64,000 bases of DNA, from the IMG/VR virus record IMGVR_UViG_3300032222_000250. The stretch is one strand, 5' to 3'. The notes below the pieces were generated by a model. That model did no database searches. It worked only from the letters and a program-made list of their open reading frames with translations, and was not told the DNA's origin. Shown here one piece after another: positions 2,904 to 30,213 of the stretch (positions are counted from its first letter, which is position 1; each line of letters opens with the position of its first letter). This stretch comes from an uncultured virus (IMG/VR IMGVR_UViG_3300032222_000250) (lineage: Duplodnaviria; Heunggongvirae; Uroviricota; Caudoviricetes). The position numbers and the translations under genes are program-made.

Positions 2904-2908
2904 GATTT

Positions 2909-4156: not shown

Positions 4157-4162
4157 AAAACC

Positions 4163-6663: not shown

Positions 6664-6732
6664 TGATATAATGATAAGTTAAAACGAAATATTATCTATT
6701 TTTTATTTGTAAATAATTTCTATAATTAAGTT

Positions 6733-12054: not shown

Positions 12055-12087
12055 AGGTATATTAATATAGTTGAACTATAATAATAA

Positions 12088-12759
12088 TTGCCTATAATTC
12101 AAGGTATGGATTTAAATAATTTTAATTGGGGTCTAACATCGAAAAGTTTTAGAAAACAAATAACTAATGAAATATTTAATGGAGTTAACGATTACGAAAA
12201 GTTTTTTGAAGTAGAAAAAGGTGATATTGTTGTAGATATTGGAGCAACTATTGGTGAATTTACTTATAAAATTTTAGATAAAAAACCAAAACATTGTTAT
12301 GTGGTTGAACCTTTATCGGTTTTTTTTGACACATTAAAGGAAAATTTACATGGACATCCTGTATCGTTTACAAATGTAGCAATTACTAGTGATAAATATT
12401 GTAATCTAAATTGGGATGGATATAATGAAACAGTCAATACATTAACATTTAATGAGTTTATTAAGTTAAATAGATTGAAACATATTGATTTTCTTAAATT
12501 TGATTGTGAAGGTGGAGAATACAATATATTTTCTTCTGAAAATATATCTTTTTTAAAGACCATTCCAAAAATTGTTGGAGAATTTCACTTACGAACTGGT
12601 GTGTTAAAAGAAAACTTTAGACACTTTAGAGATATAATACTACCAAATTTTGATAATTATCGATTCATGTCTGTTGATTTTGTTGATATTACTTGGGACT
12701 TAAAAAACGAACATTTTATTCAACACTACAAAGAAATTTATTTATACATTAACAATTAA
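12088..12759 (+). CDS. FkbM family methyltransferase
   Basis: VVDIGATIG and IDFLKFDCEGGE. The start may be 12106. Confidence 0.85.
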   Translation: MPIIQGMDLNNFNWGLTSKSFRKQITNEIFNGVNDYEKFFEVEKGDIVVDIGATIGEFTYKILDKKPKHCYVVEPLSVFFDTLKENLHGHPVSFTNVAITSDKYCNLNWDGYNETVNTLTFNEFIKLNRLKHIDFLKFDCEGGEYNIFSSENISFLKTIPKIVGEFHLRTGVLKENFRHFRDIILPNFDNYRFMSVDFVDITWDLKNEHFIQHYKEIYLYINN

Positions 12760-12772
12760 AAAAAATACATAT

Positions 12773-13504
12773 ATGAAAAAAACACTTGATAATTTTGATT
12801 GGGGTTGGATGAATGAGACAAATGAAGTATATAGAATACTTGGGGACAATAATAATAAACAAATGGGACAATTCCATAAAGACACTATTACTAGAGAAAT
12901 TTATGTTGATAGTTGTTATGAGAAATTCTTTGAAGTTAAAGAAGGGGATATAGTATTAGATGTTGGTGCGAGTGTCGGACCATTCACATATTCAATTTTA
13001 GATAAAAAACCAAAACATGTTTTTTGTTTTGAACCAAGTTATAGAGAATTTAAAACATTAGTAAAAAATACTATTGGAAATCCCGTGACCCATATAAATA
13101 AGGGTATTTCCGATAAAAATTCAATTGTTAAAAATGATGAACTTTTTGGTGGAGAAACCGAAATGGAAGGGATAACGTTCAAAACGTTTGTTGATTTGTT
13201 TGGTGTTGATAAAATTGATTTTATTAAAACAGATTGTGAAGGTGGAGAATACCATATATTCAATGATGATAATATGGGATATATTAAAAATAATGTTAAA
13301 AAAATTGTTGGGGAATGGCATTTACGACTTGAGAATCATAACTATGTTGAAGAATTCAGACATTTTAGAGATACCTATCTTAAAGAATTTCCAAATCATC
13401 AAGTTTATTCAATAGACAATATTGATATAAAATGGGATTTATGGAATGAACATTTTCTTGAATATTATAATCAAGTTATAGTTCATATAGATAATCAAGA
13501 CTAA
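12773..13504 (+). CDS. FkbM family methyltransferase, tandem paralogue of 12088
   Basis: VLDVGASVG and IDFIKTDCEGGE. Shares YEKFFEV, ILDKKPKH and FRHFRD with the upstream gene. Confidence 0.87.
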   Translation: MKKTLDNFDWGWMNETNEVYRILGDNNNKQMGQFHKDTITREIYVDSCYEKFFEVKEGDIVLDVGASVGPFTYSILDKKPKHVFCFEPSYREFKTLVKNTIGNPVTHINKGISDKNSIVKNDELFGGETEMEGITFKTFVDLFGVDKIDFIKTDCEGGEYHIFNDDNMGYIKNNVKKIVGEWHLRLENHNYVEEFRHFRDTYLKEFPNHQVYSIDNIDIKWDLWNEHFLEYYNQVIVHIDNQD

Positions 13505-13507
13505 TTT

Positions 13508-14590
13508 ATGAGTAATATATTATATGTTATTGATGGTTATTTATCATCTAAAGATAAGGCGGATGTAACTTTAGAATTAATTCAACAACTTAAATTGTTG
13601 GATGGGTCTCGTAAGATAATGTTAATTAATAAATTTGGTAATTCTTGGGGAATTGATACTCAAGTTGATTTTTATAGAGAATATCTTGATGGTTTTATGG
13701 TTGGTTATCCACCTGAAGAAATTATAAATTCAAATCTATATAATAAACCATATGTTTATTATGAAATTGAAAGTGGTATTTTAGAAAATTGGATGCCATT
13801 TATTGGTGTTTCTGACCATGTGGCAAATGTATATAATGGATTCATATACGGACTTCAAGAGGCAAATAAAGAAGGGTACTCAAAAGTTTTTAGGATTGAA
13901 TACGACATGTTATTTGATAACGAAGAATTTAGTGAGGTCTTAAATGATTTGAATACTTTTGAAACTGAAGATTATTTGATTTATGGAAAAAGAAAAGAAG
14001 GTAAATGGGCGGGTCAACACCAATCGTTAATTGATGTTCATTTTTGTGGATATTCAAATAAAACAATAGGTGATTTTTCATTTGTTAAAAATGATGAAGA
14101 ATATTGGAACTTATGTGGTGAGATAGGATATTCAGGTAAATGGGCTGAGTATGTATTATCAATGATATTTCAATACAATTCAACTGAAAATGTTTTTGGT
14201 AAAATATATGAAGGACCAATTAGAAATAAATTTACAAAATCACAATTTGACCGAATATCATCTTCGGGTGAATGGACAGACAAATGGAAAGATATTCCAA
14301 AAATATGTAAATTGGATATTGGTCAAGGACACAAGACGGACCCAAATAAACTTGTTATTTTTTATTTGAATAGGGATTACGACATGGCGGAGGTTGATGT
14401 TGTGTCTAATACGGGATATTATAAACATGTTGAATTAAAACAAGGGTTTTGGTGTTATGAGATTATTGATAGAACTGACAACATGATATTCATGTCAAAA
14501 GTTACACATAAAGACGGTTCAAATGTTTACCTTAAAAAAGTTAATAATGATAATTTTGAATTAATTAAAGATAGATTTATATTAAAATGA
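13508..14590 (+). CDS. Hypothetical protein in the glycosylation island (possible GT-A fold)
   Basis: 360-aa ORF with RIEYD in a DxD-like position. Confidence 0.55.
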   Translation: MSNILYVIDGYLSSKDKADVTLELIQQLKLLDGSRKIMLINKFGNSWGIDTQVDFYREYLDGFMVGYPPEEIINSNLYNKPYVYYEIESGILENWMPFIGVSDHVANVYNGFIYGLQEANKEGYSKVFRIEYDMLFDNEEFSEVLNDLNTFETEDYLIYGKRKEGKWAGQHQSLIDVHFCGYSNKTIGDFSFVKNDEEYWNLCGEIGYSGKWAEYVLSMIFQYNSTENVFGKIYEGPIRNKFTKSQFDRISSSGEWTDKWKDIPKICKLDIGQGHKTDPNKLVIFYLNRDYDMAEVDVVSNTGYYKHVELKQGFWCYEIIDRTDNMIFMSKVTHKDGSNVYLKKVNNDNFELIKDRFILK

Positions 14591-16416
14591 ATATATTAAT
14601 TCCTTTAGGCGGTATTGGAAAACGATTCAGTGATTATGGGTACCATATGCCAAAACCTTTGATTAAAGTTTTGGGTAAAGAAATAATATTTTGGTTGTTA
14701 GATTCCTTAGATGTTAGTGACGAGGACAGTATATATATCCCATATAATGAATGTTTGGAGTATTATAATTTTAGTGAGATTATTAACTCAAAGTACCCAA
14801 AGATTAAATTAACTCCAATTCCTGACACAAAAGGAGCCTCCGAAACAATATTAAAAGGATTAGATTATTTTAATATTAACGGTAAAATTGTTGTGTTAGA
14901 TGGAGATACATGGTATGATGAGAATATAATAGAAAAAATACGAAAAATTGAGGGAAATTCAGTTTTATACTTTGATTCAAAAAACCCAAATCCAATATAT
15001 TCGTATATTCAAATCAAAGATAATATTATTACAAACATTAAAGAAAAGATTAAAATTTCAAATAATGCTAACAGTGGATGTTATGTGTTTCAGGATTCTG
15101 AAAAGTTAAAAAAACAAATACTTGAAATAGGTTTTGATGTTGAAAAAGAATTATACACCTCTCAAGTTATTAGTAAAATGATTGAAAATGGTGAACAATT
15201 TATACCAATTAAAGTTAATGATTTTTATGTGTTAGGAACACCACAACAAATTATTCAGTTTTCAAAAACATATGAGATATCTAAGAAAAGATTTTGTTTT
15301 GATTTAGATAATACATTGGTAACATATCCAAAAGTTGATGGTGATTATACAACTGTTGAACCAATTTATGACACAATCAATTATTTAAAAAAACTTAAAG
15401 AAAAGGGTCATACGATTATAATTTATACTGCTAGAAGAATGAGAACACATGGTGGTAATGTGGGTGTTGTTATTGCAGATATTGGTAAGATTACTATAGA
15501 TACTTTAGAAAAGTATAACATACCTTATGATGAAATTTATTTTGGAAAACCATACGCTCATTTTTATATTGATGATTTAATGGTAAACCCAAAGACAGAT
15601 TTAAATAAAACTTTAGGGTTTTATATGGAAGATGTGACACCAAGACATTTTAATGAAGTTAAAATTGGGAAGACTTTTATTAAAAAATCCGATGACATAA
15701 AGTTACAAGGTGAAATAGAATATTATAAATGGGTTGTGGATAATGGAACTGAAGAAATTCAAAAATTATTTCCAAAAATGTTAAAATATTCTGATAATAG
15801 TGTGGAATTAGAAATGATACAAGGCATTAATTTTAGTACAATGTATGTCAATAATATTTTAACCATTGAACACCTTCAATTATTAATGGGAAAAATAAAA
15901 CTATTACATAGTAACCTTGAAAGTGATGAAACTCATTTTGATTATCCAAACTTAAGTAAAAAATTTGTGGAAAGGGTTAAAATGTATGATTATAAATCAT
16001 ATGGTATTACAGATAATCAGGTATTACAAATTGAAAAAGAGTTAATTAAAATTGAGTCTCAGGGGTATAAAAATGTTATGATACATGGTGATTGTGTTTT
16101 TAGTAATATTATGTTAAGTGAGAGTGAGGATATAAAGTTTGTGGATGTTAGAGGTATGGTTGGGGATAAAAAAACTTGTTATGGGTTATATCTTTATGAT
16201 TATGCCAAAATATACCAATCTTTGATTGGGTATGATGAAATATTGATGGATAAAAAAATAAAAAAATCATATAAGAATATGATGTTGGAGTATTTTAAAA
16301 CACAAGTTGGTGATGATTTTGAGAAGATAAAAATTATTACAAAATCACTTATATTGTCATTAGTACCTTTACACAATGATGTTGATAAAATTAAAAAATA
16401 TCTTAAATTAATTTAA
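14587..16416 (+). CDS. Trifunctional fusion: NTP transferase, HAD (capsule-type) phosphatase and APH/choline-kinase-like phosphotransferase
   Basis: ILIPLGGIGKRF..PKPLI; FCFDLDNTL..YTARRM..FGKP..YIDD; MIHGDCVFSNI..FVD. Confidence 0.85.
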   Translation: MNILIPLGGIGKRFSDYGYHMPKPLIKVLGKEIIFWLLDSLDVSDEDSIYIPYNECLEYYNFSEIINSKYPKIKLTPIPDTKGASETILKGLDYFNINGKIVVLDGDTWYDENIIEKIRKIEGNSVLYFDSKNPNPIYSYIQIKDNIITNIKEKIKISNNANSGCYVFQDSEKLKKQILEIGFDVEKELYTSQVISKMIENGEQFIPIKVNDFYVLGTPQQIIQFSKTYEISKKRFCFDLDNTLVTYPKVDGDYTTVEPIYDTINYLKKLKEKGHTIIIYTARRMRTHGGNVGVVIADIGKITIDTLEKYNIPYDEIYFGKPYAHFYIDDLMVNPKTDLNKTLGFYMEDVTPRHFNEVKIGKTFIKKSDDIKLQGEIEYYKWVVDNGTEEIQKLFPKMLKYSDNSVELEMIQGINFSTMYVNNILTIEHLQLLMGKIKLLHSNLESDETHFDYPNLSKKFVERVKMYDYKSYGITDNQVLQIEKELIKIESQGYKNVMIHGDCVFSNIMLSESEDIKFVDVRGMVGDKKTCYGLYLYDYAKIYQSLIGYDEILMDKKIKKSYKNMMLEYFKTQVGDDFEKIKIITKSLILSLVPLHNDVDKIKKYLKLI

Positions 16417-16417
16417 T

Positions 16418-17062
16418 ATGGCACAAGGAGTACATAAAATTACAGAAGATTTTGAAAAGGCTCTGTGTGATTACACTGGAGCTCCACATGCGATTGCTTT
16501 GGACAATATGAGTAACGCTTTGTTTTTAGCATTATATTATGAAAAAAACATAAAAAAAAATTTAATATCGGATGAGGTAGATTGTCCATCAAAGACATAT
16601 CCATCAGTTCCTTGTGAGATTATTCATGCTGGTCTTAAAGTTAATTTTACACCTGTTGAAGGTGAAACAATTAAAGGGGCTTACCGATTATCCCCCAGTA
16701 ATGTTTGGGATTCGGCATTACGATTTACGTCAGATATGTATATTCCAAAGTCACATATGTGTCTTTCATTTACAGGACCATACAAAACATTGAAGTTAAG
16801 TAAAGGTGGTGCAATTTTAACTGATGACCATAAAGCAATGTTATGGTTTAAACGTGCAAGATTTAGTGGAAGACGAGAGTGTTCATATCACGATGATAAT
16901 TTTGATATGTTGGGTTGGAATTTTTATATGATGCCAGAACTTTCAGCAAGAGGTTTATTGATGATGTCACAGTTTTATGATTTAAAGGGGAATAAAAAAC
17001 ATATGGACGATTTGGAATTACCCTATCCTGATTTGTCCAAATTTAAAATATATCAAAAATAA
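16418..17062 (+). CDS. Short DegT/DnrJ/EryC1/StrS family sugar aminotransferase
   Basis: FEKALCDY, TYPSVP, WDSA, LSFTGPYKTL (PLP Lys), GGAILTDD and GWNFYM. Confidence 0.78.
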   Translation: MAQGVHKITEDFEKALCDYTGAPHAIALDNMSNALFLALYYEKNIKKNLISDEVDCPSKTYPSVPCEIIHAGLKVNFTPVEGETIKGAYRLSPSNVWDSALRFTSDMYIPKSHMCLSFTGPYKTLKLSKGGAILTDDHKAMLWFKRARFSGRRECSYHDDNFDMLGWNFYMMPELSARGLLMMSQFYDLKGNKKHMDDLELPYPDLSKFKIYQK

Positions 17063-17063
17063 T

Positions 17064-17606
17064 ATGTTTTACACAAAAGAAGAATTAAATGAAATGGGTT
17101 TTAAATCCATTGGAAAAAATGTCTTAATATCTAACAAAGCATCAATTTATGGTGTTAAAAATATTGAAATTGGTTCAAATGTTAGAATTGATGATTTTTG
17201 TATTATAAGTGCAGGTGAAGGTGGAATTCAAATTGGTAATTATGTTCATATTGCGTGTTATGCCCATTTAATAGGTTCAGGTCAAATTATTGTTGAAGAC
17301 CATGCACAAATTTCAGGTAAGGTTTCAATCTATTCATCTTCTGATGATTTTTCAGGAGATTATTTAGTTGGTCCTACAGTACCAAAAGAATTTACAAATG
17401 TTAAAAGTTTAACGGTACATCTTAAAAAATATGTAATATTAGGTTGTAATGTTGTTGTATTACCTGGAGTTACAATTGAGGAAGGCACTGCAATTGGTGC
17501 TTTAAGTTTAGTTTCAAAAAATTTACCCGAATATGGAATATACGGTGGTAATCCATTAAGATTGATAAAAGAAAGAACAAAGGGGATGCAAAAATATGAG
17601 ATATAA
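17064..17606 (+). CDS. Hexapeptide-repeat acyltransferase (VioB-like)
   Basis: GFKSIGKNVLIS, IGSNVRIDDFC, YSSSDDFSG and IYGGNP. Confidence 0.85.
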   Translation: MFYTKEELNEMGFKSIGKNVLISNKASIYGVKNIEIGSNVRIDDFCIISAGEGGIQIGNYVHIACYAHLIGSGQIIVEDHAQISGKVSIYSSSDDFSGDYLVGPTVPKEFTNVKSLTVHLKKYVILGCNVVVLPGVTIEEGTAIGALSLVSKNLPEYGIYGGNPLRLIKERTKGMQKYEI

Positions 17607-18537
17607 TAATGTTGGTATCTTGGGTACTGGTTCATATTTACCAACAAAAATAATAACTAATCAAAAAATTGAAGAGACTGTAGACACAACTCATGAATGG
17701 ATTAATGCTAAATTAGGTATTAATGAAAGGAGAATAGTTGAAGATGAATTACCGTCTGAAATTGGATATCAGGCGGCCTTAAAGGCTTTAGGGTCCGCAA
17801 ATTTGACAATTAATGATATCGATTTAATTATTGTTGCAACGTCAAGTCCCGAACAAATATCACCATCAACCGCTTGTATTATTCATAATAAATTTAATAT
17901 TGAAAAAAATATCCCAGCATTTGATATTAATGCGGTTTGTTCTGGATTTGTATATGCAGTAAATTTAGTATCACCATTGATTAGTTTTGGTGTTTACAAA
18001 AATGTATTAATTATTGCAACCGAAGCATATTCTAAAGTTACTAATTGGAATGACCAACACTGTGTATTTTTTGGTGATGGCGCGGGAGCGGTCGTAATAG
18101 GAACATCAAAAGATGGATGGGTATCGTGTGAGAATAATGCCAACGGTAAAGATACTGGTATGACAGGATTTAAATTACCAATTGGAGGTCCTTTTATTAT
18201 GAAAGGTAAAGAAGTTTGGAACCAAGCAATTAAAGTTATACCCGAATCTGTTAGAAATATTTTAAAAATTTCAAGTGTGGATATTAGTGAAGTTGATATG
18301 ATAGTTCCTCACCAGCCAAGTATTAATATACTTAAAATAATCGCTGAGGATTTAGGTTTCCCAATGTCAAAAGTTAAAACTGTAATGGATAAATATGCAA
18401 ATATTGCGGGGGCATCTGTTCCGATTGCTTTAGATGATGCCGTTAAAAATGGTGAAATTAAAAAGGGTGACACAATTGTCTTAACCGCAATTGGTTCTGG
18501 TTGGACTTGGGGTTCGACAATATTAAAATGGATTTAA
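17596..18537 (+). CDS. fabH: 3-oxoacyl-ACP synthase III family protein
   Basis: GTGSYLP, AFDINAVCSGF (catalytic Cys), FGDGAGA, PHQ (His), YANIAGAS (Asn) and GSGWTWG. Confidence 0.93.
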   Translation: MRYNNVGILGTGSYLPTKIITNQKIEETVDTTHEWINAKLGINERRIVEDELPSEIGYQAALKALGSANLTINDIDLIIVATSSPEQISPSTACIIHNKFNIEKNIPAFDINAVCSGFVYAVNLVSPLISFGVYKNVLIIATEAYSKVTNWNDQHCVFFGDGAGAVVIGTSKDGWVSCENNANGKDTGMTGFKLPIGGPFIMKGKEVWNQAIKVIPESVRNILKISSVDISEVDMIVPHQPSINILKIIAEDLGFPMSKVKTVMDKYANIAGASVPIALDDAVKNGEIKKGDTIVLTAIGSGWTWGSTILKWI

Positions 18538-18541
18538 CAAT

Positions 18542-19441
18542 ATGATTTTAGAGTCTTCAGAAACCAAGTTATCTTTTATAGTTAATACTATGATTAGTAT
18601 TGGTTTTGAGCATAAAGGAGGTTCATATGTTTTACATAAATTGGCGTATGAATTGGCGGAATATGGACATAATATCTATGTATTTAATGAACCATTTTAC
18701 CCGCATAATAATATAAAGGTGATTCCAACCAAAAGATATCCAATTGGTGACGGTTGGAATTCAAAATTTGAATGGGAAGGATTTGAGTATAATCCAAATA
18801 AAACGGTTAGTATTCAACCACAAACAACATTTGGTAATCCTTTTAATACTATTCATAATGCTAGATGGATTTTACACCATACAACACAAGAACAATTTGA
18901 CACTTTTGGTGTGAATGATTTAATATATAAAATTGCGGATTTTGAGGTACCCACAAAATTAGAAATTAAACCTTTAGTTGTTATTGATTATAATTTAGAT
19001 AAGTTTGAAAATCTAAATAAAAAAAATCGTTCAGGTTTTTGTCATATTCTTCATAAGAACACACCTGATTGGGGTAAAGATTTTTTAACTAAATTTAATT
19101 CTAAAGATTTAAGTGATTGGTATAATAAAGGTGGATTAGAATATTTGAACATTGAATTAAATAACTATGAATATATGTTAACTTTTGATGACAAAACATA
19201 TTTAACCACAATTTCGGCATTATGTGGTGCAAAAGCAATAATTTTAAATGAAAAAACAACACCATATAAATACAGACAATTAAATCCAACACAAATGTAT
19301 GGAATTGCTTATGGTATGAATGATATTACATGGGCTAATAGTACAATTGATATGGTTGAAAACCATTTAATTGAACTTAAAAAAAATGATAAAGAAACTG
19401 TTAAAGAATTCGTTAAATATTGGGAAAATAAATTATTATGA
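18542..19441 (+). CDS. Putative glycosyltransferase-like (WavQ-like) protein
   Basis: GGSYVLHKLA, GNPFN..ARWIL and TFDDKTYL..ALCG. Confidence 0.55.
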   Translation: MILESSETKLSFIVNTMISIGFEHKGGSYVLHKLAYELAEYGHNIYVFNEPFYPHNNIKVIPTKRYPIGDGWNSKFEWEGFEYNPNKTVSIQPQTTFGNPFNTIHNARWILHHTTQEQFDTFGVNDLIYKIADFEVPTKLEIKPLVVIDYNLDKFENLNKKNRSGFCHILHKNTPDWGKDFLTKFNSKDLSDWYNKGGLEYLNIELNNYEYMLTFDDKTYLTTISALCGAKAIILNEKTTPYKYRQLNPTQMYGIAYGMNDITWANSTIDMVENHLIELKKNDKETVKEFVKYWENKLL

Positions 19442-20394
19442 TAAACTATAGTATAAAATATGAAGGAATTAATGATGATAAAAATTGTTTTTATTATTCG
19501 TTAAATTCAAAAACAAATAAAACCGTGATTCTTAGAGTTTATAATTCTTATTTGAATTATAAAGAATACGATGAGACAATAGAATTAACTCCCAACTTAA
19601 AATTTTGGACTTGTATTCCGTCAAACAATAGTAATCGTTATGTTGAGTTTAGAGATTTAGAAACTTTGGAAATTGTTGGTCTTTTTGGATTGGAAGGTTT
19701 GCAAGATATTGAAGACTCTGACGATTTAAAGTATGTTAAAACAATTTTTAATGATTTAAAACCTGGTGAAAAACATAATGTTTATACTGTGTTTAATGAA
19801 ATAACGACTCACAATGTTTATAATAATGATTATGTTAGTGTTGAAGAAAATGATTTAGTTATTGATATTGGATTTAATTATGGTTTATTTTCACTGACAA
19901 GCTTAAAATATAAACCATCTAAAATTATTGCATTTGAACCCAACCCAAAATTAGTTAAAACTTTTACTGAATTTTACAATGGCAATATAATAACATTACA
20001 TCAAAAAGCGGTTTCTAATGAAAATGGTCGTACTGTTTTTTATGAAAATTTAGACCCTGGCATGTCAAGTATTTTCCAAGAAATTAATAATATTACTCGT
20101 GGGGAATCATATGAGGTTGAAATTGTTAATTTTAACAATTTTATTCTTCATAATAATATAGATAAAATTGATTATCTTAAAGTTGATTGTGAAGGTGCAG
20201 AATATGGTATATTTGAATCTATACCGTTTGATTTTTTAAAGGATAATGTAAAAAAAATTGCAATAGAGTTTCATCATCAAATTAAAGATGAAAAAGTTCA
20301 AACGTTAATCAATAAACTTAAAAATTGTAATTTCACTATTAAAATTGTTTATGAAGAAAATTCAAATATTGGATTAATTTATGGAAAAAAATAA
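19438..20394 (+). CDS. FkbM family methyltransferase with N-terminal extension
   Basis: VIDIGFNYG, IAFEPNP, IDYLKVDCEGAE and IEFH. Confidence 0.87.
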   Translation: MINYSIKYEGINDDKNCFYYSLNSKTNKTVILRVYNSYLNYKEYDETIELTPNLKFWTCIPSNNSNRYVEFRDLETLEIVGLFGLEGLQDIEDSDDLKYVKTIFNDLKPGEKHNVYTVFNEITTHNVYNNDYVSVEENDLVIDIGFNYGLFSLTSLKYKPSKIIAFEPNPKLVKTFTEFYNGNIITLHQKAVSNENGRTVFYENLDPGMSSIFQEINNITRGESYEVEIVNFNNFILHNNIDKIDYLKVDCEGAEYGIFESIPFDFLKDNVKKIAIEFHHQIKDEKVQTLINKLKNCNFTIKIVYEENSNIGLIYGKK

Positions 20395-22249
20395 TATACT
20401 TTTAATTCAACTTTGGTTAGGTAAAATACCTGATTATTTTTGGTATCATTACGAGACCACTAAAAACTTAATTGGTTTTAATTTTATATTATTTACAGAC
20501 CAAGAAATTGAATTGGATTCTAAGAATTATACAGTTATTAATACAACAAAGGAAGATATTGAATTAAAACTATCAGGTAAATTAAATTATAAAATTAAAA
20601 TTAATAACAATAGAAAAACCTGTGATTTAAAAGCGTCTTTTGGGGATTTATTTGAAGAATATATTAATGGTTATGATTATTTTGGATGTTATGATATTGA
20701 TACATTATTTGGTGATGTTTACGGTAGCATATTACCTTATTTAAATAAATATGATTTTATTACTATTGGTGATGAAACTTTTCATAATAGATTGTCAGGT
20801 CCATTCTTAATTATGAGGAACACCAAAGAGATAAGAACATTATATAAAAAAGGTGATTTTATTAAATGTCTGTCAAACAATGAGGTTGAATGTTATGAGG
20901 AACATACTTTGAGTGATTTGGTAAAAGAAACCCATGAAATTAAAATTGTAAGTTCAATGAACTGTGAAACAAATAATGGTGGTAAAAATACTTATGATGT
21001 TCATTGGAAAGGTGGAAAATTATTAATAAATGGTGAAGAAAAAATTTTGTATCACTTTTACAGGAAAAACCATACAATTTTTCAAAAAGTAGGAAACCAA
21101 ATTTTTGGTAGGTTTAATAAAAACTTTATTGAGGATTTTTATTGGGTGTTTGGGTTTACTGAAAATTACTCACAAACAATCCCATTTTTAATGAATTCAA
21201 TAAATAAATATTCCAATAGAAAATGTGTTATTTACTCAATCAATTTTGACTACAATATTCCCAATAAATTTTTAACTAGTGAACAATTTATTTTCAAAAG
21301 AATTGACATTGAACCAGGTAAAAAAGATTCAAGAGGTAGAGATGAAAATATTATTAGTTGTAAACCAAGATTAATGTTAGATGTTATTGATTTTTTACCA
21401 AATAAAAAATTCATATTCATTGATAGTGATGTTTACATGACAGTTGCTTCAGATGATATTAGTAGTTATTTCAGTCAACTTAAAAACTACCCATTAATTA
21501 ATCAACACTCACACGATAAACTTTATTTATGTAATATTATTGATGGTGAAGAATGGACAAGTACTGTTGATATTTTAGCCGACGCAACAGGAATTGAGAT
21601 ATGTGTTTTTCCAAGAAGAAAAACAAATGTCATGTTATTTGATTATAAATCAAAATGGTTCTTCCAAGAACAATTACAGATGTATGATGAATATAGAGAC
21701 AGCAGACCTGGTATTTTTACATTACATGATGAAGACTCTGCAAATGTTATACTATCTAAGTATAAATTAACTAATTCAATACATCTTTGTGATATTGAGG
21801 AATCTTCAAATATTAATATTAGTAAGTTTACCGATATGAATCATCCATTTCATATGACAGGTATTTCTGATTTTGTTAAACTGCCAAAACACCAAAATGA
21901 TGTAGTATGTTTTCATAATTTAAAAAATGAAGAACAATATGTTAGAATTGAAAATGATTACAATAATCATGTTATTGATTGTGAAGAAATTTTAGTTTAC
22001 TATAAAGACAATTCAGTCTTTTTTGAAAAAAATTCTTTTTTAACTACTAAACATATTGACGAACATGTTGACTTTATAATTAAAGATTTAAATGGTAACA
22101 TTGTTAATGTTTTAGCAAATCAAAATTTACAACAATATTGGTTATTTTACATTTCAGATATAGAATTAACCGATAAAAGTTATATTATTGAAATAGTTAA
22201 AACAAATAGTAGGGTAAAAATCTACAATAATTTATTACAGGTAATATGA
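20381..22249 (+). CDS. Two-domain putative glycosyltransferase (DUF6625-like plus a second GT-A-like domain)
   Basis: WLGKIPDYF, CDLKASFG.LF and YFGCYDIDTLFGD; the second domain has CKP, FIFIDSD and HDED. Confidence 0.6.
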   Translation: MEKNNILLIQLWLGKIPDYFWYHYETTKNLIGFNFILFTDQEIELDSKNYTVINTTKEDIELKLSGKLNYKIKINNNRKTCDLKASFGDLFEEYINGYDYFGCYDIDTLFGDVYGSILPYLNKYDFITIGDETFHNRLSGPFLIMRNTKEIRTLYKKGDFIKCLSNNEVECYEEHTLSDLVKETHEIKIVSSMNCETNNGGKNTYDVHWKGGKLLINGEEKILYHFYRKNHTIFQKVGNQIFGRFNKNFIEDFYWVFGFTENYSQTIPFLMNSINKYSNRKCVIYSINFDYNIPNKFLTSEQFIFKRIDIEPGKKDSRGRDENIISCKPRLMLDVIDFLPNKKFIFIDSDVYMTVASDDISSYFSQLKNYPLINQHSHDKLYLCNIIDGEEWTSTVDILADATGIEICVFPRRKTNVMLFDYKSKWFFQEQLQMYDEYRDSRPGIFTLHDEDSANVILSKYKLTNSIHLCDIEESSNINISKFTDMNHPFHMTGISDFVKLPKHQNDVVCFHNLKNEEQYVRIENDYNNHVIDCEEILVYYKDNSVFFEKNSFLTTKHIDEHVDFIIKDLNGNIVNVLANQNLQQYWLFYISDIELTDKSYIIEIVKTNSRVKIYNNLLQVI

Positions 22250-22794
22250 TAGAAAATATACATTTATGGAAAGCCGACAGAGGAACTTATTTTGACCGAA
22301 ATGTTAACATAATTTCTTGGAGTGATGAATATGAAATCCATGTCGGAAAGTACTGCTCAATTGGAAGAGACTGTAACTTCTTCTTACATGCAAATCATAG
22401 ACCTGATTGGATAACGACAAGTTCCCAATTATGGGGACCTGTTACTCCTGAGATTGCAGGTATGCACATGGAGATGGGTCACCCATCTTGTAAAGGTAAT
22501 ATTATGATTGGAAATGATGTTTGGATTGGTGCAAAATCAACAATAATGTCAGGAGTTAAAATTGGACACGGGGCAATTGTTGCCGCAGGCGCATTGGTCA
22601 CCAAAGACGTTGAGCCTTATTCAGTTGTTGGAGGAAACCCTGCAAAACATTTAAAATACCGATTTACTGAAGAGCAAATTAAAGATTTGTTGGATATTGC
22701 TTGGTGGGATTGGGAAGAAAGTAAAATTAAAGAAGAAGCCATGATTTTATGGAGTCAAGATATAAATTTTTTCATAGAAAAACATAAAAAATGA
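22246..22794 (+). CDS. CatB/Vat-like hexapeptide O-acetyltransferase
   Basis: VGKYCSIG, NH, IGNDVWIG, VTKDVEPYSVVGGNPAK and WWDW. Confidence 0.88.
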   Translation: MIENIHLWKADRGTYFDRNVNIISWSDEYEIHVGKYCSIGRDCNFFLHANHRPDWITTSSQLWGPVTPEIAGMHMEMGHPSCKGNIMIGNDVWIGAKSTIMSGVKIGHGAIVAAGALVTKDVEPYSVVGGNPAKHLKYRFTEEQIKDLLDIAWWDWEESKIKEEAMILWSQDINFFIEKHKK

Positions 22795-23633
22795 TTACAG
22801 TTGAATATAATTCAGAAGGTATTAAAGTTAATGTTGGTGAGATTAGTAAGTATAATAAAAACTTACCATTAAGATTAAAAATTAAAAAACACGTAAGTGG
22901 TGAGGAACAATGGGCAACCGATTTAAATGACAATTGGTTTGCGACATTCCCAAATACTGAAATGTATGATGTTGAAATATATGATACCAAGGATAAATTA
23001 GTTTATAAAAAAGTGTGGGATATTATGGAACATGGAAATCATTTCTATAAGTCTTTGTGGATGTTTAACAAGGGTATTTTGTCTAATGGTAAATTCCCAA
23101 AGGGATTGGTTGTTGGAACTCACGATGGTGAGTTTGGTGAGTGGGTACCAATTGTTCAAAAACGTGAATGTAATGTTGTTTTAGTAGAGGCATCAGATAA
23201 CCAATACAATCAATTAAAAAATAATTACAAGAACAATTCAATGGTTAAAACCATTCAAAATTTAATCACACCTAATGGTGGCGAAGTTGAATTCTTTGAA
23301 GGCGGTGCGGGATATACAAATACCGTAGTTGAAAATGTTATTAGACATTGGGAAACAGAAGAAATTAACTCAACAAAACGAGATTCAATTAGTATTACAG
23401 ATTTAATTTTAAATGAATGTGATGGACATATTGATTGGTTACATCTTGATGTTGAAGGTTTAGATGCTCAGTTAATTATGGGTATTGATGAAACAAAAGT
23501 CCAACTACCAAATTTTATTATATTTGAAGACTATAATTTAACCCAAGATAAAAAAGATGAAATTTATGGTTGGTTACATAATAAAGGGTTTAAAACCTTT
23601 TCTGAAGGCGGTATTTGTGAAGCGGTAAAATGA
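22791..23633 (+). CDS. FkbM-like methyltransferase domain protein
   Basis: VVGTHDG, VLVEA, IDWLHLDVEGLD and IIFE. Confidence 0.7.
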   Translation: MITVEYNSEGIKVNVGEISKYNKNLPLRLKIKKHVSGEEQWATDLNDNWFATFPNTEMYDVEIYDTKDKLVYKKVWDIMEHGNHFYKSLWMFNKGILSNGKFPKGLVVGTHDGEFGEWVPIVQKRECNVVLVEASDNQYNQLKNNYKNNSMVKTIQNLITPNGGEVEFFEGGAGYTNTVVENVIRHWETEEINSTKRDSISITDLILNECDGHIDWLHLDVEGLDAQLIMGIDETKVQLPNFIIFEDYNLTQDKKDEIYGWLHNKGFKTFSEGGICEAVK

Positions 23634-24019
23634 TTTACAATTCAAAAATATACATAGACCAAAGTCCTGTTCATGGATGGGGGGTGTTTGCAAAAGAATT
23701 GATTAAGGAAGGTGAAATTTTTGAAGAATGTCCTGTAATTACCTTACCAATTAATAAAGGTGAATCATCATCATTATTAATTGATTATAGATTCAATTGG
23801 CCACAAGGTGTGGAATGGGAAGAACAAGTATTTGCATTTGGGTATGGTGGGTTATACAACCACAGTGAAAATGCCAATGCTTATTGGGTATCAAATACTG
23901 ATGAAAAAACTTTTAGATTTATTGCCAATAAAGATATTCAACCAAAAGAAGAAATTTTTGTTTGGTATGGTGATATTAATTATTGGAATGACGGAAGAAA
24001 TCATACAAATGTAATTTAA
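23630..24019 (+). CDS. SET-domain lysine methyltransferase
   Basis: SPVHGWGVFA, YNHS..NA and IQPKEEIFVWYG. Confidence 0.9.
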   Translation: MIYNSKIYIDQSPVHGWGVFAKELIKEGEIFEECPVITLPINKGESSSLLIDYRFNWPQGVEWEEQVFAFGYGGLYNHSENANAYWVSNTDEKTFRFIANKDIQPKEEIFVWYGDINYWNDGRNHTNVI

Positions 24020-24189
24020 TTTCTTTTGTAACCGTTAAGTTTGTTGAATTTTTCCAATACTTTAAGTGAGTCAAAGTAATTCTTTTCGGCTCTTTCAATT
24101 TCTTTCATATTAGTTGTGCTTTCAAGAACTTTATTATATTCTTTTTCAGATTCTTCAACTAAATTTTGTATTGTTTTAATGAGTTTCAT
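24016..24189 (-). CDS. Small hypothetical protein (57 aa, MKLIKTIQNLVEESEK...), not in the ORF track
   Basis: Open frame filling the gap, preceded by the TATTTATA motif on the minus strand. Confidence 0.6.
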   Translation of the reverse strand: MKLIKTIQNLVEESEKEYNKVLESTTNMKEIERAEKNYFDSLKVLEKFNKLNGYKRN

Positions 24190-24229
24190 CACTATATAAA
24201 TATCTCCAAACTTTACTATAATTACAAAA

Positions 24230-25210
24230 ATGACTTGGAAAGATAAACTTATATTTGTTTCAGCACAACCAGATGTACCGTATTTTCATTGGCAGTGTGA
24301 AGTATATTTAAATAATTTTATTGAGTTGGGTATTCCAAAAGAGAATATTCATGTTTTATTTGCAATGGTTAATAAAACAACCGAGTTATCTGATGGTGCA
24401 AAATATTTAAAAAAATATACAGAAAATATTCATGGGTATATAGACAACCGTGAAAGAAAACATTACATACCAAGTATTAAACCTTATTTATTATATGAAT
24501 GGATTAAAGAAGACCCAAAAAGAGGAGAGTTATTTTTTCTACATGACTCTGACATTGTATTTAATTACCTTCCTGATTTCAGCAATCTTATAAACAATGA
24601 TTATATCTATATGTCCAATACTCGTGGATATATAGATTTTAATTACATTATGGATTGTGATGGTAGGTATAAAGAAAAACATCCCCAATTAGATTCAGGA
24701 CAACTATTGAGAGAAATGTGTGACATTGTTGGTGTTGAACCAAGTGTTGTTAAAAAGAATGATGTTAATTCAGGTGGTGCTCAATATGTGTTTAAAAAAC
24801 AAGATTGGCAAATGTGGTATAAAATTTATAAAGAATCCACAGGTCTTTATGACAAACTAATGAGATTCCAACGAAAGTATCCAATATCACCAGGTGAGAT
24901 ACAATTTTGGACTGCCGAAATGTGGTCAGTATTATGGAATCAATGGTGGTGGAATAAAGAAACAAGGATTACCAAAGAACTTGATTTTTGTTGGGCGACT
25001 GATAAGATTGAAACTTGTAATACCAACCCAATATTACATATGGCTGGTGTAACTGATAACCTTAAAAATACACTATTTTTTAAAGGTGATTATATTAATA
25101 ATAACCCAATTGAACTTTTGAAATATAATGTTGAGTATTTTAATTATGTTGATAAACAATCAGCAACTTACAAATACATAAATGAAATGAAAAAAATAAT
25201 TCAAAAATAG
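24230..25210 (+). CDS. Putative protein O-glycosyltransferase resembling plant SGT1/HPAT (GT96/GT95-like)
   Basis: Motif order YFHWQ, YIPSIKPYLLYEWI, LHDSDIVF (DxD), GGAQY, WTAEMW and ILHMAG parallels the SGT1/HPAT motifs as I recall them. Confidence 0.6.
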   Translation: MTWKDKLIFVSAQPDVPYFHWQCEVYLNNFIELGIPKENIHVLFAMVNKTTELSDGAKYLKKYTENIHGYIDNRERKHYIPSIKPYLLYEWIKEDPKRGELFFLHDSDIVFNYLPDFSNLINNDYIYMSNTRGYIDFNYIMDCDGRYKEKHPQLDSGQLLREMCDIVGVEPSVVKKNDVNSGGAQYVFKKQDWQMWYKIYKESTGLYDKLMRFQRKYPISPGEIQFWTAEMWSVLWNQWWWNKETRITKELDFCWATDKIETCNTNPILHMAGVTDNLKNTLFFKGDYINNNPIELLKYNVEYFNYVDKQSATYKYINEMKKIIQK

Positions 25211-25220
25211 AATTATCTGT

Positions 25221-25246: not shown

Positions 25247-27637
25247 ATGGCAAATTATTCAATAATACCTTGTTCAGGAGGACCGTCAGTTGTTGCTGAT
25301 TTTGGTGCATTTACACCAACAACCGGAAAGGTATATTATTTAACATTCTCCTTTGGTATTACTGATGGGTGTTATACTATTGTATCAATTACTGGAAGTG
25401 CGTTTATTGGCACGGTTACGACAATGTCGTCTCAATATGATACTTGTAGTGAATGTGAGTTAGCGACAACACCAACGCCTACACCTACTAATACAGAAAC
25501 ACCAACGCCTACACCTACTAATACAGAAACACCAACGCCTACACCTACGTTAACACCTACACCAACTAGTTGTGTTTGTAGATTTTTGGATGTTGTAATA
25601 ACACAAGGTGATATAGATGACGCGACAGGAAATACAAACACAGCATTAAATGGTAAAGTATATCTTTTTTACACTGATTGTGAAAGTAATCCTACTAGTG
25701 AGGAATACTCAGTTGCTAGTGCGTACACGCATTCAGTTTGTGCGTTAGCTAGTCAAATAGGTGTATTAACAGATACGTATTATTTTAAAAATAATGTATC
25801 AACTAATGGTACGTCAACATGGACTGATAGTAATGATTGTTGTTTTTTGGGTACACCAACACCAACACCAACAAATACAGAAACACCGACAGTAACACCA
25901 ACTAATACTGAGACTCCAACGGTAACTCCAACAAATACAGAAACTCCGTCAGTATCCTCAACTTCAACGACAACACCAACTAATACTCAAACGCCAACAG
26001 TAACGCCAACTAATACTCAAACTCCTACAGGAACTCCGTCAGTATCTCCAACTTCAACACCAACAGTAACGCCAACAAATACTCAAACGCCAACAAATAC
26101 TCAAACGCCAACAGTAACTCCAACTAATACTCAAACGACAACAGTAACGCCAACTAATACTCAAACTCCTACAGGAACTCCGTCAGTATCTCCAACTTCA
26201 ACACCAACAGTAACGCCAACTAATACTCAAACGCCAACAAATACTCAAACGCCAACAGTAACTCCAACTAATACTCAAACGCCAACAGTAACACCATCTA
26301 TTACACCTACAGATTATGCGTTTAATATCTATACGTTTAAGGATTGTTGTAATGAAACAAATATTTTTAGATTTAATACAATATCATCAACTTTAATTGT
26401 TGGACAAACATTTTATATAACAAGTACTGGGTTTACTGGTTGTGCTGAAGTAATACCATACGAACCAATAGGTGAAAATTATTCTGGTGTTGGAGTTGTC
26501 TTTACTGAACAATCTTCTTGTGATGATGGGTTTTGTCCAACATGTCCTACACCAACGCCAACTCCATCAGGTCCTGTAGTTGATTGTACTTGTTTAGAGT
26601 ATCTATTGTATAATAGTAATTCTATTGATGTATATGTTGACCACATTGATTGTTATGGTCAATTTAGAGAATTTTTAGTTGTTGCAGATACAACAGTATC
26701 GTTATGTGCATGTGAAAATTCTGTTATTGCACCTGAGGGTGTGTATATAACCTTAATTGGTGAATGTCCTGCACCATCTTCAACCGTCCAACCTACACCT
26801 ACACAAACACCAACACCATCATTAACACCATCAGCAGGTTGGAATTTATGTCCAATTGATGAGTATTGTTTATTAACATATTTCCCAACAACAGAATTAT
26901 ATGATGGTACTTATTATTCTGCCGGTACACAAAATAATAGAGTATACTATTCAGGTGATACTGGATTTATATACTACACGGGAACTTATTGGTGTCTAAG
27001 TGCAACTTTAGGTGGTAGTTGTATCTTACATGGTAAAATACCAAGTTCATCTATATGTCCTGATTTATGTGATGAAGTGTTTAGTTCAGGAACTTGTGTT
27101 ACAACAACATCAACAACAAACCCTTGTAATGTGTTTGATTTTGATGCGTATTTTTATTGTGATGTATCAACGACAACTACTACAACAACGATAACTCCTA
27201 CACCAACACCAACGCCAACACCAACGGTAACTCTTACACCAACAACCAACCCTTGTTTATTGGTTGGTGCAAATATTACTTTTACAGCATATACAACCAC
27301 AACTACAACTGTCTTTAGCCCAACACCAACACCAAGTCCAAATTATGGTACTCCGGTTAGTGGTGATGTGACTTATCAGTTGGTTGACACAATATTTGTA
27401 TGTCCTGGTCAAACATATCAGTTTCAAGAGTGTAATACAAACAATATGTATTATTTGGAACCATCAAATGTGTTTGTTGATGTTGATTTAATTACCAACT
27501 ATTCATACAATATGACCATAAACGGAACTCAATCATGTTACACCTATATTGGTGTGAGTTCAACATCTCCAAATTCAACAGCGTCTGTTGTTGTTGATTG
27601 GTTTGTAGATTGCTCAACATGTCAAGATAGTTTATAA
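25247..27637 (+). CDS. Cys-rich, Pro/Thr-repeat (mucin-like) putative virion protein
   Basis: Long [10 protein letters not shown] tracts separate Cys-rich modules; TATTTATA motif upstream. Confidence 0.75.
25853..26310 (+). repeat. Pro/Thr coding repeat tract containing a ~144-bp tandem duplication
   Basis: ACTCCTACAGGAACTCCGTCAGTATCTCCAACTTCAACACC occurs at ~26021 and ~26165, within many CCAACAGTAAC.CCAAC.AATACTCAA units. Confidence 0.9.
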
Positions 27638-27978
27638 TGGCAATTGATATAACAATAGCATCAATAACAGGACAATCACCATATGATATTTATATCTGTG
27701 ATTCAGTTGTGGCAAACTGTGTTTATATTTCAACCATACAAAGTGGGAATACACCATACATCTTTACAGTTCCAGCCCCATTAGATAATCAAACTTCTTT
27801 GTGTGTTAAAATTGTTGATAGTAATGAGTGTGTATTTAGTTACTGTTTTGTTGGTTATATAACCCAAACACCAACTCAAACACCAACGGTTACTCCAACT
27901 AAGACTACGACACCAACGGTTACTCCAACTAATACTACAACACCAACAACAACACCAACAATAACACCAACAGCATAA
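27637..27978 (+). CDS. Small Ig-like virion protein with a Pro/Thr tail
   Basis: ITGQSPYDIYICD..CVKIVDSNEC followed by TPT repeats. Confidence 0.65.
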   Translation: MAIDITIASITGQSPYDIYICDSVVANCVYISTIQSGNTPYIFTVPAPLDNQTSLCVKIVDSNECVFSYCFVGYITQTPTQTPTVTPTKTTTPTVTPTNTTTPTTTPTITPTA

Positions 27979-27987
27979 GAAAAAATA

Positions 27988-30213
27988 ATGGCAATTCAAA
28001 CTAACATATTTACCAATTGTAATAATGTAAATCAAACACAGATATTACAGTATAATGACATATTCTTCAATCCTGGAGATATTGCTTATTATGATGGATT
28101 ATGTTGGATTGATACCGAAGTAAATAGTGATTTAATACCCGTTGCCGATGTAACGTTTAGTGGGTATGGTAGTTGTGATGATTGTATTTCTACCAATTTA
28201 CTTGGACTTCAAATTCAAAATTGTACTTCAAGTGAACTTGCTGTAATAACTGTACCAACAAATATTGTACCTACACTTAATACTGTAATTTTATATGATG
28301 GTAGTTGTTGGGAATATGTTGCACTTAGACCAACTAATGACAATGTCTATACATCATTAACTACATATGAAGATTGTACAGTTTGTTTAGATTTAAACAC
28401 AGGAACTACTCAATATTCTGCGGTTACATTTACAAATTGTTGTGACTCAACAGATGTATTAACATTTAATATAATACCATCAAATTTTGTATATCCTTTT
28501 GGTAGTACGGTTGTTTATAATAATAAGTGTTATTCGTTAACTAATACAACAACCGCTTCAACAGTAACAGCAACTTTTGAATATCCTGAATATCAAAATT
28601 GTACTTTTTGTCAATCGGAAATTCCGTGTCCGACACCAACACCAACGCCGAGCGTCACCGCAACACAGACGTTAACACCAACTAATACACCAAGTATTAC
28701 GCCAACAAAAACAATAACACCAACACCAACAAAAACACCGGGATTAACTCCAACACCAAGTTATACTACAACTACAACAACAAGAGCCACAGAAAAAAAT
28801 GAATGTAATGTTATTACATTATTTCCATTAGGTGTTACTTGTAATGTTGTAAATCCAACAATCGTAAATGGATTTGGTACTATGAGTTTATTTATAACTG
28901 GTGGTACACCACCATATAATATAGTTTGGAGTAATGGTATTATTGATTCAACTGTTGTTAGTGGTTTAACACCAGGAGTTTATTCTGCAATTGTAACTGA
29001 TTATTCTTGGCCTAATAGTGGACCTGATTTTACAGCATCTACAACATGTACAATAATTGGAGTAACACCAACACCTACACCATCATTAACACCAACGTTA
29101 ACTCCATCGCCAACACCTACACCATATACTGGTTTATGTGTGACATTTACATTGACTAATAATCAACAATATCAGTATCAGTTTAATTATTATTCAACAA
29201 TAAATAATAAACCTGCTTGGACTGCAGCGACTTATTCATCACCAATAACAACTGGTTCTGGTGGAATATTGGTATTAAGTAATTCTGTATTATCAGGTTG
29301 GACAATTCAAGGTTTGTCAACAGACGCTTACCCAAGTTCAAATACGACTTCAATACCACCGTTAAATAATTGGATTATGAATGGAAGTAGTCAAATTAGT
29401 TCTTTAAGTGTGGTTACAGGTACTTGTCCTACTTATTTACCACTTAACATGTCTGTGGTTACATCATCGGCGACTTGTACAGCAACGGCTGATGGTTCAA
29501 TAGCGATTCAACCATATGGTGGTTCGGGTTCATATATTTACTCAATTAATAGTGGAACCACAACAGGAACAACGGCTTATTTCTATGATTTAAATCCTGG
29601 TATATATACGGTGTATGTTAAAGATACTGTGACAGGATTGTATATTACCCAAAATATTACGGTGGCAAATTTAAATCAAAATGTAACAACAACATTACAA
29701 TTAACACAAACAACAAATCAAACTCAAATTGACAGTCCATATGTGCAATCTAAAAATCAAATATGGAGTTTAAATTGTGGTGATATTCCAAATGGAGTTA
29801 CGATTACAATGTTATTTGACATTAGTAATAATTTTGAACTTTATAAACCTGGTAGTGGAAATAACAATCTAACCAACATTGTTATTAATAAAAATAATGT
29901 ACCAATAACAATAACTTCAGGTGGTACAACAAACACATCATCACCAAGACCTTTCTGTTCACCAAATAACATTGAAACGACTTTAAAAGATTTGTCGGCA
30001 ACAGTTTCTGTAACAAATAGTGATACTTTAACGGTTAATGTTTACAACTATGGTATTATAACAAGTGCTACAACATCAAGTTGTGATACAACAATAAATA
30101 GTGAAATCCAAATTAATGGTTCATTTAACTACATATCTGAGGATAATTGTAATACTATAATATCTGGTGGTTTATCAGTGGTTAGTGTTGTTGAAAAGTC
30201 ATTACAAGAATAA
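27988..30213 (+). CDS. Cys-rich, Pro/Thr-repeat virion protein with SprB-like repeats
   Basis: Three Cys modules, PT tracts, GTMSLFITGGTPPYNIVWSNG..LTPGVYSAIVTD and DGSIAIQPYGGSGSYIYSI..LNPGIYTVYVKD. Confidence 0.75.
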   Translation: MAIQTNIFTNCNNVNQTQILQYNDIFFNPGDIAYYDGLCWIDTEVNSDLIPVADVTFSGYGSCDDCISTNLLGLQIQNCTSSELAVITVPTNIVPTLNTVILYDGSCWEYVALRPTNDNVYTSLTTYEDCTVCLDLNTGTTQYSAVTFTNCCDSTDVLTFNIIPSNFVYPFGSTVVYNNKCYSLTNTTTASTVTATFEYPEYQNCTFCQSEIPCPTPTPTPSVTATQTLTPTNTPSITPTKTITPTPTKTPGLTPTPSYTTTTTTRATEKNECNVITLFPLGVTCNVVNPTIVNGFGTMSLFITGGTPPYNIVWSNGIIDSTVVSGLTPGVYSAIVTDYSWPNSGPDFTASTTCTIIGVTPTPTPSLTPTLTPSPTPTPYTGLCVTFTLTNNQQYQYQFNYYSTINNKPAWTAATYSSPITTGSGGILVLSNSVLSGWTIQGLSTDAYPSSNTTSIPPLNNWIMNGSSQISSLSVVTGTCPTYLPLNMSVVTSSATCTATADGSIAIQPYGGSGSYIYSINSGTTTGTTAYFYDLNPGIYTVYVKDTVTGLYITQNITVANLNQNVTTTLQLTQTTNQTQIDSPYVQSKNQIWSLNCGDIPNGVTITMLFDISNNFELYKPGSGNNNLTNIVINKNNVPITITSGGTTNTSSPRPFCSPNNIETTLKDLSATVSVTNSDTLTVNVYNYGIITSATTSSCDTTINSEIQINGSFNYISEDNCNTIISGGLSVVSVVEKSLQE

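Follow-up and report, generated by a model that had tools for sequence, protein, structure and literature searches.

A soluble phage glycosyltransferase distantly related to the Pfam HPAT family: a candidate initiator of O-glycosylation on threonine-rich virion proteins

What does a glycosyltransferase-like enzyme act on when its gene is placed between a large island of sugar-metabolism genes and three genes for threonine (Thr)- and proline-rich repeat proteins? The question is raised by the gene at 24230..25210 in a stretch of 64,000 nucleotides (the window hereafter) from the uncultured Caudoviricetes virus IMGVR_UViG_3300032222_000250; the features discussed are collected in Table 1. A preliminary description had likened the gene product, here called the transferase, to the plant SGT1/HPAT enzymes and had taken it for the best candidate initiating protein O-glycosyltransferase; the plant enzymes act on Ser/Pro-rich extensins. 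We consider it likely that the transferase is soluble and initiates O-glycosylation at threonine residues in virion proteins. According to this proposal, a metal-dependent enzyme of the GT-A (glycosyltransferase A) fold would act in the cytoplasm of the infected cell and move the first sugar from a nucleotide sugar, the presumed donor, onto threonine hydroxyls. The targets would be Thr-rich unstructured tracts of the phage's own proteins, which would be glycosylated before or during assembly. In the window phage the three Thr/Pro-repeat proteins encoded directly downstream would serve as acceptors, and enzymes of the upstream island may then extend or modify the glycan.

The AlphaFold2 model of the transferase (built on alignment A1) has a predicted local distance difference test score (pLDDT) of 97.4 and a predicted template modelling score (pTM) of 0.94, and the whole chain forms one globular domain. 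The model shows a Rossmann-like fold, a DxD motif after the fourth strand and a downstream histidine, which are the features of GT-A enzymes. Its closest folds are retaining enzymes of the families GT8 and GT24, at 7-10% sequence identity, and Foldseek returned these families again with template modelling (TM) scores of 0.4-0.5. In BFVD the top two matches were members of the transferase's own family, an uncultured phage protein (TM 0.85) and Orf49 of Lactobacillus phage LP65 (TM 0.72), followed by viral GT8 proteins. Judged by this confident model together with the invariant DxD (D106/D108) and the invariant H270, the transferase is a GT-A glycosyltransferase from the retaining GT8/GT24 neighbourhood, and the identity proposed in the preliminary description is thereby substantiated. 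A retaining mechanism is probable because the closest solved folds are retaining enzymes. The retaining GT-A set of GT8 and GT24 includes glycogenin, LgtC, the Skp1 alpha-galactosyltransferase, GlyE of the pneumococcal serine-rich repeat protein pathway and UGGT. The transferase differs from these enzymes by the low sequence identity, by extra helical elements that hold the TM score to 0.45-0.5 and by the lack of a Pfam GT8 match. More specifically, PF01501 (GT8) did not match the transferase protein at E <= 0.1; at E <= 1 it was also missing from the families listed for 51 relatives and, for 56 relatives, from the 25 families listed out of 26. The general Pfam scan of the transferase (E <= 0.1) reached no family and gave a sub-threshold match to DUF3113 alone, and PDB sequence searches with the single sequence or a profile yielded nothing meaningful. 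The protein has no hydrophobic segment (maximum Kyte-Doolittle value over 19 residues, 0.83) and is predicted to be soluble.

The four motifs that had drawn attention to the gene, YFHWQ, YIPSIKPYLLYEWI, LHDSD and WTAEMW, are all found in the open reading frame (ORF) where they had been placed. Alignments of 51 and 56 relatives show the residues W21, Q22, Y79, D106, D108, W227, M231 and W232 to be either invariant or conserved to at least 90%, and since they stay conserved across relatives the motifs are not chance strings. Invariant in the 51 single-domain relatives are Y79, D106, D108, Y134, Y139, G183, W232, F253, H270, G273, F283, K285 and Y316, while the 56-sequence alignment, drawn from bacterial genomes and isolate phages, fixes W21, Y79, D106, D108, Q225, W227, M231 and H270. 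The two aspartates are invariant in all three family alignments (51, 140 and 56 sequences), and H270 is invariant in the 51- and 56-sequence alignments and at least 90% conserved in that of 140 sequences. The family is large: 1309 proteins with lengths of 179-571 residues were found at E <= 0.001, and a scan of cluster representatives gave 813 homologues, 291 of them at E <= 1e-30. It corresponds to phrog_4417 of PHROGs v4 (E 2.3e-71, residues 9-323 against profile positions 3-291 of 293). This full-length match is to a family annotated as of unknown function, for which the function proposed here is new.

The association with threonine is evident in the window itself. Tracts rich in Thr, Pro and Ser occur in only three of the 63 window ORFs of at least 100 residues, and these are the genes at +1, +2 and +3 of the transferase gene. 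The chance that three marked genes fall exactly there is 1 in 37,820 (2.6e-5), where it should be kept in mind that tandem paralogues can cluster for other reasons. The first of the repeat genes starts 37 nt past the transferase gene, so that the adjacency described earlier is confirmed. The transferase gene also closes the sugar island, as had been claimed, though a gap of 210 nt intervenes; considering this upstream gap and the 37 nt downstream, the gene belongs with the repeat genes by position. If the 58-residue minus-strand frame within the gap is real, the transferase would share a transcription unit with the repeat genes and not with the island. A scan for promoters and terminators gave no excess over chance (51 promoter-like sites against 50.6 expected). 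The island, linked to the transferase by position, may be a source of donors and of enzymes that elongate or decorate the glycan.

A pairing of the same kind is found in many other, unrelated phages. The IMG/VR contigs that encode close relatives of the transferase (51-57% identity) reach 318 kb, and one of them is rated complete. The 80 close viral relatives comprise 67 distinct sequences, of which 62 have an ORF with 8 or more Thr in 15 residues within +1..+3. A tblastn search of isolate phages gave 77 records, all below 60% identity and all with a query coverage of at least 80%, and the gene context was inspected for 12 of them, with hosts from Lacticaseibacillus, Lactobacillus, Lactococcus, Enterococcus, Staphylococcus, Clostridium and Chryseobacterium. 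In all 12 the homologue is part of the structural module and a Thr run is present on a capsid, tail or neighbouring protein; in 10 it lies between the head and tail genes. It directly follows the major capsid protein in R3.3, bIL285, Enterococcus phage 4995_1 and VPE25 (with one small gene between them in iLp84) and the major tail or major structural protein in phiCTP1, phiFL2A, SA2 and 1706. In MA9V-3 the homologue is found behind an unannotated protein with a Thr run and ahead of a large fibre-like protein, and in the Herelleviridae Iacchus and 521B behind small Thr-rich or immunoglobulin-like proteins. In 9 of the 12 phages the gene immediately upstream reaches 8 or more Thr in 15 residues. 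The runs are typically located at the extreme C-terminus, e.g. ...TTTTTTTTTTHHD, ...TTTTTTTSK and ...TTTTTTSHA, and the second repeat protein of the window is built like these C-terminal tags.

Two modified loci were noted among the isolate phages. In Enterococcus phage phiFL2A (locus L084, 5001-5856) tblastn finds the homologue in two pieces, most of it without annotation. Thr runs are retained there on the capsid-position and tail proteins, and the transferase homologue may be a recent pseudogene. In Staphylococcus phage SA2 (locus L085, 4111-4924) a Thr run forms the end of the major tail gene, which overlaps an 87-residue Thr/Ser-rich frame; this frame might extend the tail protein by frameshifting.

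The tail protein of bIL285 provides a control for loss. It has 203 homologues in isolate phages, mostly phages of Streptococcus, Ruminococcus and Bacillus, which are missing from the list of 77 transferase-bearing records. In six out of six bIL285-type tail proteins (45-56% identity) the Thr run is absent (3-5 Thr in 15), and in the same six phages a chaperone gene lies directly behind the tail gene. Moreover, the family is carried by temperate siphophages of 35-40 kb, and in five small transferase-bearing phages no GT2 or GT4 domain was detected by searches that matched all 14 control genomes. The transferase is the sole one of these enzymes in the small phages and therefore fits an initiating role. 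The pairing with threonine, the loss control and the solitary enzyme of the small phages together argue for the candidate role that the preliminary description had assigned.

In bacterial genomes we examined 80 loci, in which the family falls into short stand-alone forms (at most 370 residues, mostly in Bacillota prophages and some in Bacteroidota) and 33 long fused forms. For the short forms, at least 7 Thr in 15 residues were found in 37 of 46 upstream genes, in none of 46 downstream genes and in 46 of 396 other ORFs (Fisher p = 2e-22). The closest match among genome contigs (54% identity) lies on a 5.3-kb contig that was binned as a Woesearchaeota metagenome-assembled genome (MAG) and is more likely a mis-binned phage fragment.

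The resemblance to HPAT is an indirect one. The Pfam family HPAT (PF23452) comprises, according to the passages available from PMC8012813, the plant hydroxyproline O-arabinosyltransferases HPAT1-3, Golgi type II membrane proteins that founded GT95, a family related to the GT96 of SGT1; GT95 is predicted to be GT-A-like in a part of PMC8476585. PF23452 has a curated gathering cut-off of 23.9 bits, which the transferase did not reach (no match at E <= 0.1). Among the 51 relatives a single match was obtained (E 0.38), and for 56 further relatives the family was not among the 25 listed of 26. It was found in none of five phage records, and the controls likewise matched nowhere. As a lead only, PF23452 is annotated in at least 10% of the members for 19 of the 30 nearest named clusters of the ESM Atlas, with DUF7164 in others. 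A connection came from five bacterial genomes with family members, which contained one PF23452 match above the cut-off: a 290-residue actinobacterial protein of an Acidimicrobiales MAG (26.5 against 23.9 bits), encoded about 4 kb from a long-form member. BLASTP aligns this protein with the transferase over residues 17-112 (E 4e-8). Its 74 relatives are mostly PF23452 by precomputed annotation, and 17 are fused to PqqD. These fused bacterial PF23452 proteins (about 370-430 residues) carry the PqqD peptide-recognition domain PF05402, which suggests leader-guided peptide glycosylation.

A profile of 32 bacterial PF23452 proteins (A4) aligned with the phage family (A1) in hhalign at 91.6% probability (E 8e-7, 253 columns) and with alignment A3 at 62.7% (E 7e-5), and the comparison with the single 290-residue protein gave 82.6%. 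As unrelated GT-A controls, a GT60-type protein reached 0.2% over 6 columns and the window's own GT2 enzyme 0.7% with the phage family profile, and the latter enzyme 0.1% with A4. The invariant positions that coincide in A1 and A4 are WQ, Y79, D106/D108, W227..M231, H270 and K285..Y288. All four motifs are in register: YFHWQ pairs with PYxxWQ of the bacterial proteins, YIPSIKPYLLYEWI with Y.P.NRP..L.EWL of the PF23452 profile, LHDSD with DPD/DCD and WTAEMW with WESDM, and H270 falls on the histidine of IIHYCQ. The predicted structures agree as well. The AlphaFold2 model of the 290-residue protein (pLDDT 95.4) has a phage-family member as its first BFVD match (E 1.9e-9, TM 0.64, 327 columns), ahead of GT6 and GT8 proteins, and its PDB neighbours are those of the transferase model (glycogenin 15.8, LgtC 15.1, Skp1 alpha-galactosyltransferase 15.0, UGGT 14.9). 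Thus, what stands of the HPAT resemblance is a remote homology, whereas membership of the Pfam family does not hold. The comparison supports a kinship that would be real but distant, and that is seen through the bacterial PF23452 members and not through the plant sequences. This kinship, together with the PqqD-fused members, would support the view that relatives of the transferase act on peptides, and it would connect the "plant-specific" HPAT family with relatives in bacteria and phages. The HPATs initiate peptide O-glycosylation on low-complexity, hydroxyl-rich tracts, which is the role proposed here for the transferase. Nevertheless, they are anchored in the Golgi membrane (type II, in the same passages of PMC8012813), whereas the transferase is predicted to be soluble and has no anchor. 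The acceptor is hydroxyproline for HPAT, which uses UDP-L-arabinofuranose as donor, and serine for SGT1, the peptidyl-serine alpha-galactosyltransferase, but probably threonine for the transferase.

Considering the relation to HPAT, a two-step route as in plants could be envisaged, in which 2-oxoglutarate (2OG)-Fe(II) oxygenases of the island hydroxylate prolines and the HPAT-like enzyme glycosylates hydroxyproline as on extensins. Pro-rich repeats do occur in the window, and so do two PF13640 oxygenase domains, one encoded at 1730-2317 and the other in the N-terminal part of 4163-6049 (weakly like the HIF prolyl hydroxylase), but the 1730-2317 protein is nearest to the PKHD/PiuC-type enzymes and not to the collagen-type prolyl 4-hydroxylases. 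Moreover, PF13640 is absent from five out of five other transferase-bearing records, including the complete 318-kb relative, and in the Firmicute phages the tag runs are pure threonine and contain no proline. Because of these last two observations threonine is the common denominator. We regard the hydroxyproline route as very unlikely, even with the remote HPAT relation in its favour, and take threonine, not serine or hydroxyproline, as the likely acceptor common to the family. A broader scheme would retain both residues: the oxygenases, one of them fused to a GmaR/SunS-like glycosyltransferase and tetratricopeptide repeats (TPR), would hydroxylate the Thr-Pro repeats, after which the HPAT-like enzyme and its partners would glycosylate Thr as well as hydroxyproline to yield mucin- or extensin-like particle fibres. 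In that scheme plant GT95 and GT96 would have a common origin with a large family of peptide O-glycosyltransferases found in bacteria and phages. We mention such an extensin-like pathway as a speculation with a small chance of being right.

The acceptor need not be a protein. The enzyme could extend or build a glycan on a cell-wall or capsular polysaccharide, a teichoic acid or a lipid-linked sugar, with the Thr tracts being coincidental or used otherwise. That the gene closes a large sugar island, that the GT8 relatives LgtC and WbbM act on glycans and that the 33 long chromosomal forms are fused to GT2/GT7C-type domains and have no Thr-rich neighbours would all be in line with this, yet the short form resides within late structural operons, flanked by capsid or tail genes on one side and chaperones on the other, and is gained and lost together with the Thr tags. 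In addition, the transferase is predicted to be soluble and the small phages have no other GT2/GT4 enzyme for making a primer, so that we consider a non-protein acceptor unlikely. Finally, the enzyme might glycosylate modified bases of the phage DNA against host restriction, a role often assigned to phage glycosyltransferases in the text available from PMC12619734. The window contains DNA-metabolism genes and a Dam-type methylase; however, no hydroxymethylase or base-modification gene was found beside the transferase in the window, the conserved place of the enzyme is the structural module next to Thr-tagged proteins, and temperate siphophages of 35-40 kb carry it, which leaves DNA glycosylation with hardly any credibility.

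Several observations weigh against the proposed role of the transferase as initiator on threonine. Sugar transfer by members of the family is predicted from genes and models, and the retaining mechanism is read from the fold neighbours. A full-text literature search yielded no paper that deals with the transferase family, phrog_4417 or poly-threonine tags in phages. In VPE25 and bIL285 the Thr run is not adjacent and is found on a tail protein five genes away, and the tract of 521B, a Thr/Val/Pro repeat, reaches only 6 Thr in 15. The p-value given for the short bacterial forms overstates the case, because related loci share ancestry and are not independent. For the long forms, in Bacteroidota and Actinomycetota, Thr-rich genes are found upstream in 2 of 31 cases, downstream in 0 of 32 and elsewhere in 3 of 184; since Thr-rich upstream genes are this rare, some members of the family may use other acceptors, for instance polysaccharides. 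In the window phage, the three repeat proteins have no informative families and would be placed in the virion by their genomic context. More specifically, Pfam and PHROG scans of the first one gave no family besides a low-complexity PHROG match, and in tblastn against isolate phages its C-terminal part and the next gene, 30243-32423, were unmatched.

O-glycosylation of mycobacteriophage virions was reportedly described by Freeman et al. in 2023 (Cell Host Microbe), with phage glycosyltransferases that are said to glycosylate the C-termini of capsid and tail-tube subunits. Virion glycosylation in mycobacteriophages is also reported in a citing passage of PMC12619734. In the Firmicute phages the Thr tags are, as read from the genes, likewise located on the C-termini of major capsid and tail proteins. 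The hosts are different (Bacillota, Bacteroidota and those of uncultured aquatic phages), and the acceptor would be a plain threonine run. If our proposal is correct, virion glycosylation is no peculiarity of mycobacteriophages but a widespread two-part system of one soluble enzyme and a short poly-threonine tag. It would be present in well-studied phages related to dairy and therapy (Lactococcus phages 1706 and bIL285, Enterococcus phage VPE25, Staphylococcus and Lactobacillus phages) as well as in aquatic jumbo phages, and it would bear on the immune recognition of therapeutic phages, on particle stability, on adhesion and on the reading of extra density in electron cryo-microscopy. Biotechnology would gain a minimal and portable O-glycosylation tag, and an unannotated family of more than 1300 members would receive a function.

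Table 1. Location of the transferase gene, its motifs and the associated features in the window
Feature	Position	Strand	Description
Transferase gene	24230..25210	+	326-residue ORF; phrog_4417 family; distant relative of Pfam HPAT
YFHWQ	residues 18-22, nt 24281-24295	+	behind first beta-strand; W21 and Q22 conserved
YIPSIKPYLLYEWI motif	residues 79-92, nt 24464-24505	+	Y79 invariant
LHDSD	residues 104-108, nt 24539-24553	+	DxD, D106 and D108 invariant; putative site for divalent metal/nucleotide sugar
WTAEMW	residues 227-232, nt 24908-24925	+	W227, M231 and W232 invariant or at least 90% conserved
H270 codon	25037..25039	+	invariant; putative third metal ligand, as in GT8-type enzymes
Repeat protein 1	25247..27637	+	likely acceptor; 796 residues, Cys-rich (37 Cys), 14 Thr/Pro/Ser tracts, 24% Thr
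Repeat protein 2	27637..27978	+	likely acceptor; 113 residues, 38-residue Thr/Pro C-terminal tail
Repeat protein 3	27988..30213	+	likely acceptor; 741 residues, four Thr/Pro linkers
58-residue ORF	24016..24192	-	open frame in the 210-nt gap between island and transferase gene
Sugar-metabolism island	1730..24019		Pfam domains upstream of transferase gene
Collagen/S74 tail-fibre gene	2-826		part of the phage gene content

The long bacterial forms deserve a description of their own. They are fused to other glycosyltransferase domains, i.e. PF11397, O-FucT, GT2 and GT7C. In Chitinophaga, Pedobacter, Mucilaginibacter and Sphingobacterium the chromosomal forms have 500-830 residues with a GT7C/GT2-like C-terminal domain, a conserved gene of 340-390 residues behind them and no Thr-rich neighbours. 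This chromosomal branch probably has another acceptor. The Acidimicrobiales MAG (loci L173, 1-3477, and L146) combines the HPAT-family protein with PF11397 (the Skp1-type GlcNAc transferase), an O-FucT-like protein and a 1013-residue fusion of the phage-family domain with F5/8C and PF11397. The transferase families at this locus are better known from protein O-glycosylation in eukaryotes.

The window has a GC content of about 30%, and its gene content (primase, SbcCD, endonuclease VII, a sigma factor, Dam methylase, DnaJ and an amidase) is that of a phage; megablast of positions 20000-32000 against isolate phages gave no DNA match. The third repeat protein shows a weak SprB-repeat match (25.7 bits against the Pfam cut-off of 28). 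By Pfam content, the island encodes GT2 and GT4/GT9 enzymes, FkbM methyltransferases, a nucleotidyltransferase, a DegT aminotransferase, hexapeptide acetyltransferases, KAS III and two 2OG-Fe(II) oxygenases. The smaller oxygenase (1730-2317, plus strand) has 195 residues and carries the PF13640 domain, with E 2e-8 for the PKHD/PiuC-type hydroxylases. The larger protein (4163-6049, plus strand, 628 residues) joins the second PF13640 domain, whose likeness to the HIF prolyl hydroxylase has an E-value of 6e-5, to a GT2 domain most like GmaR and the SunS/ThuS-type peptide glycosyltransferases and to C-terminal TPR repeats, and may be a second protein-directed modifying enzyme of the island. Between 14587 and 18537 (plus strand) a 609-residue nucleotidyltransferase with isomerase- and kinase-like parts is encoded together with a truncated DegT-type aminotransferase, a hexapeptide acetyltransferase and a KAS III-like enzyme, a set that suggests an unusual, possibly acylated amino sugar. 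Just ahead of the transferase gene, 23630-24019 (plus strand) encodes a 129-residue SET-domain protein (PF00856, E 1.7e-15).

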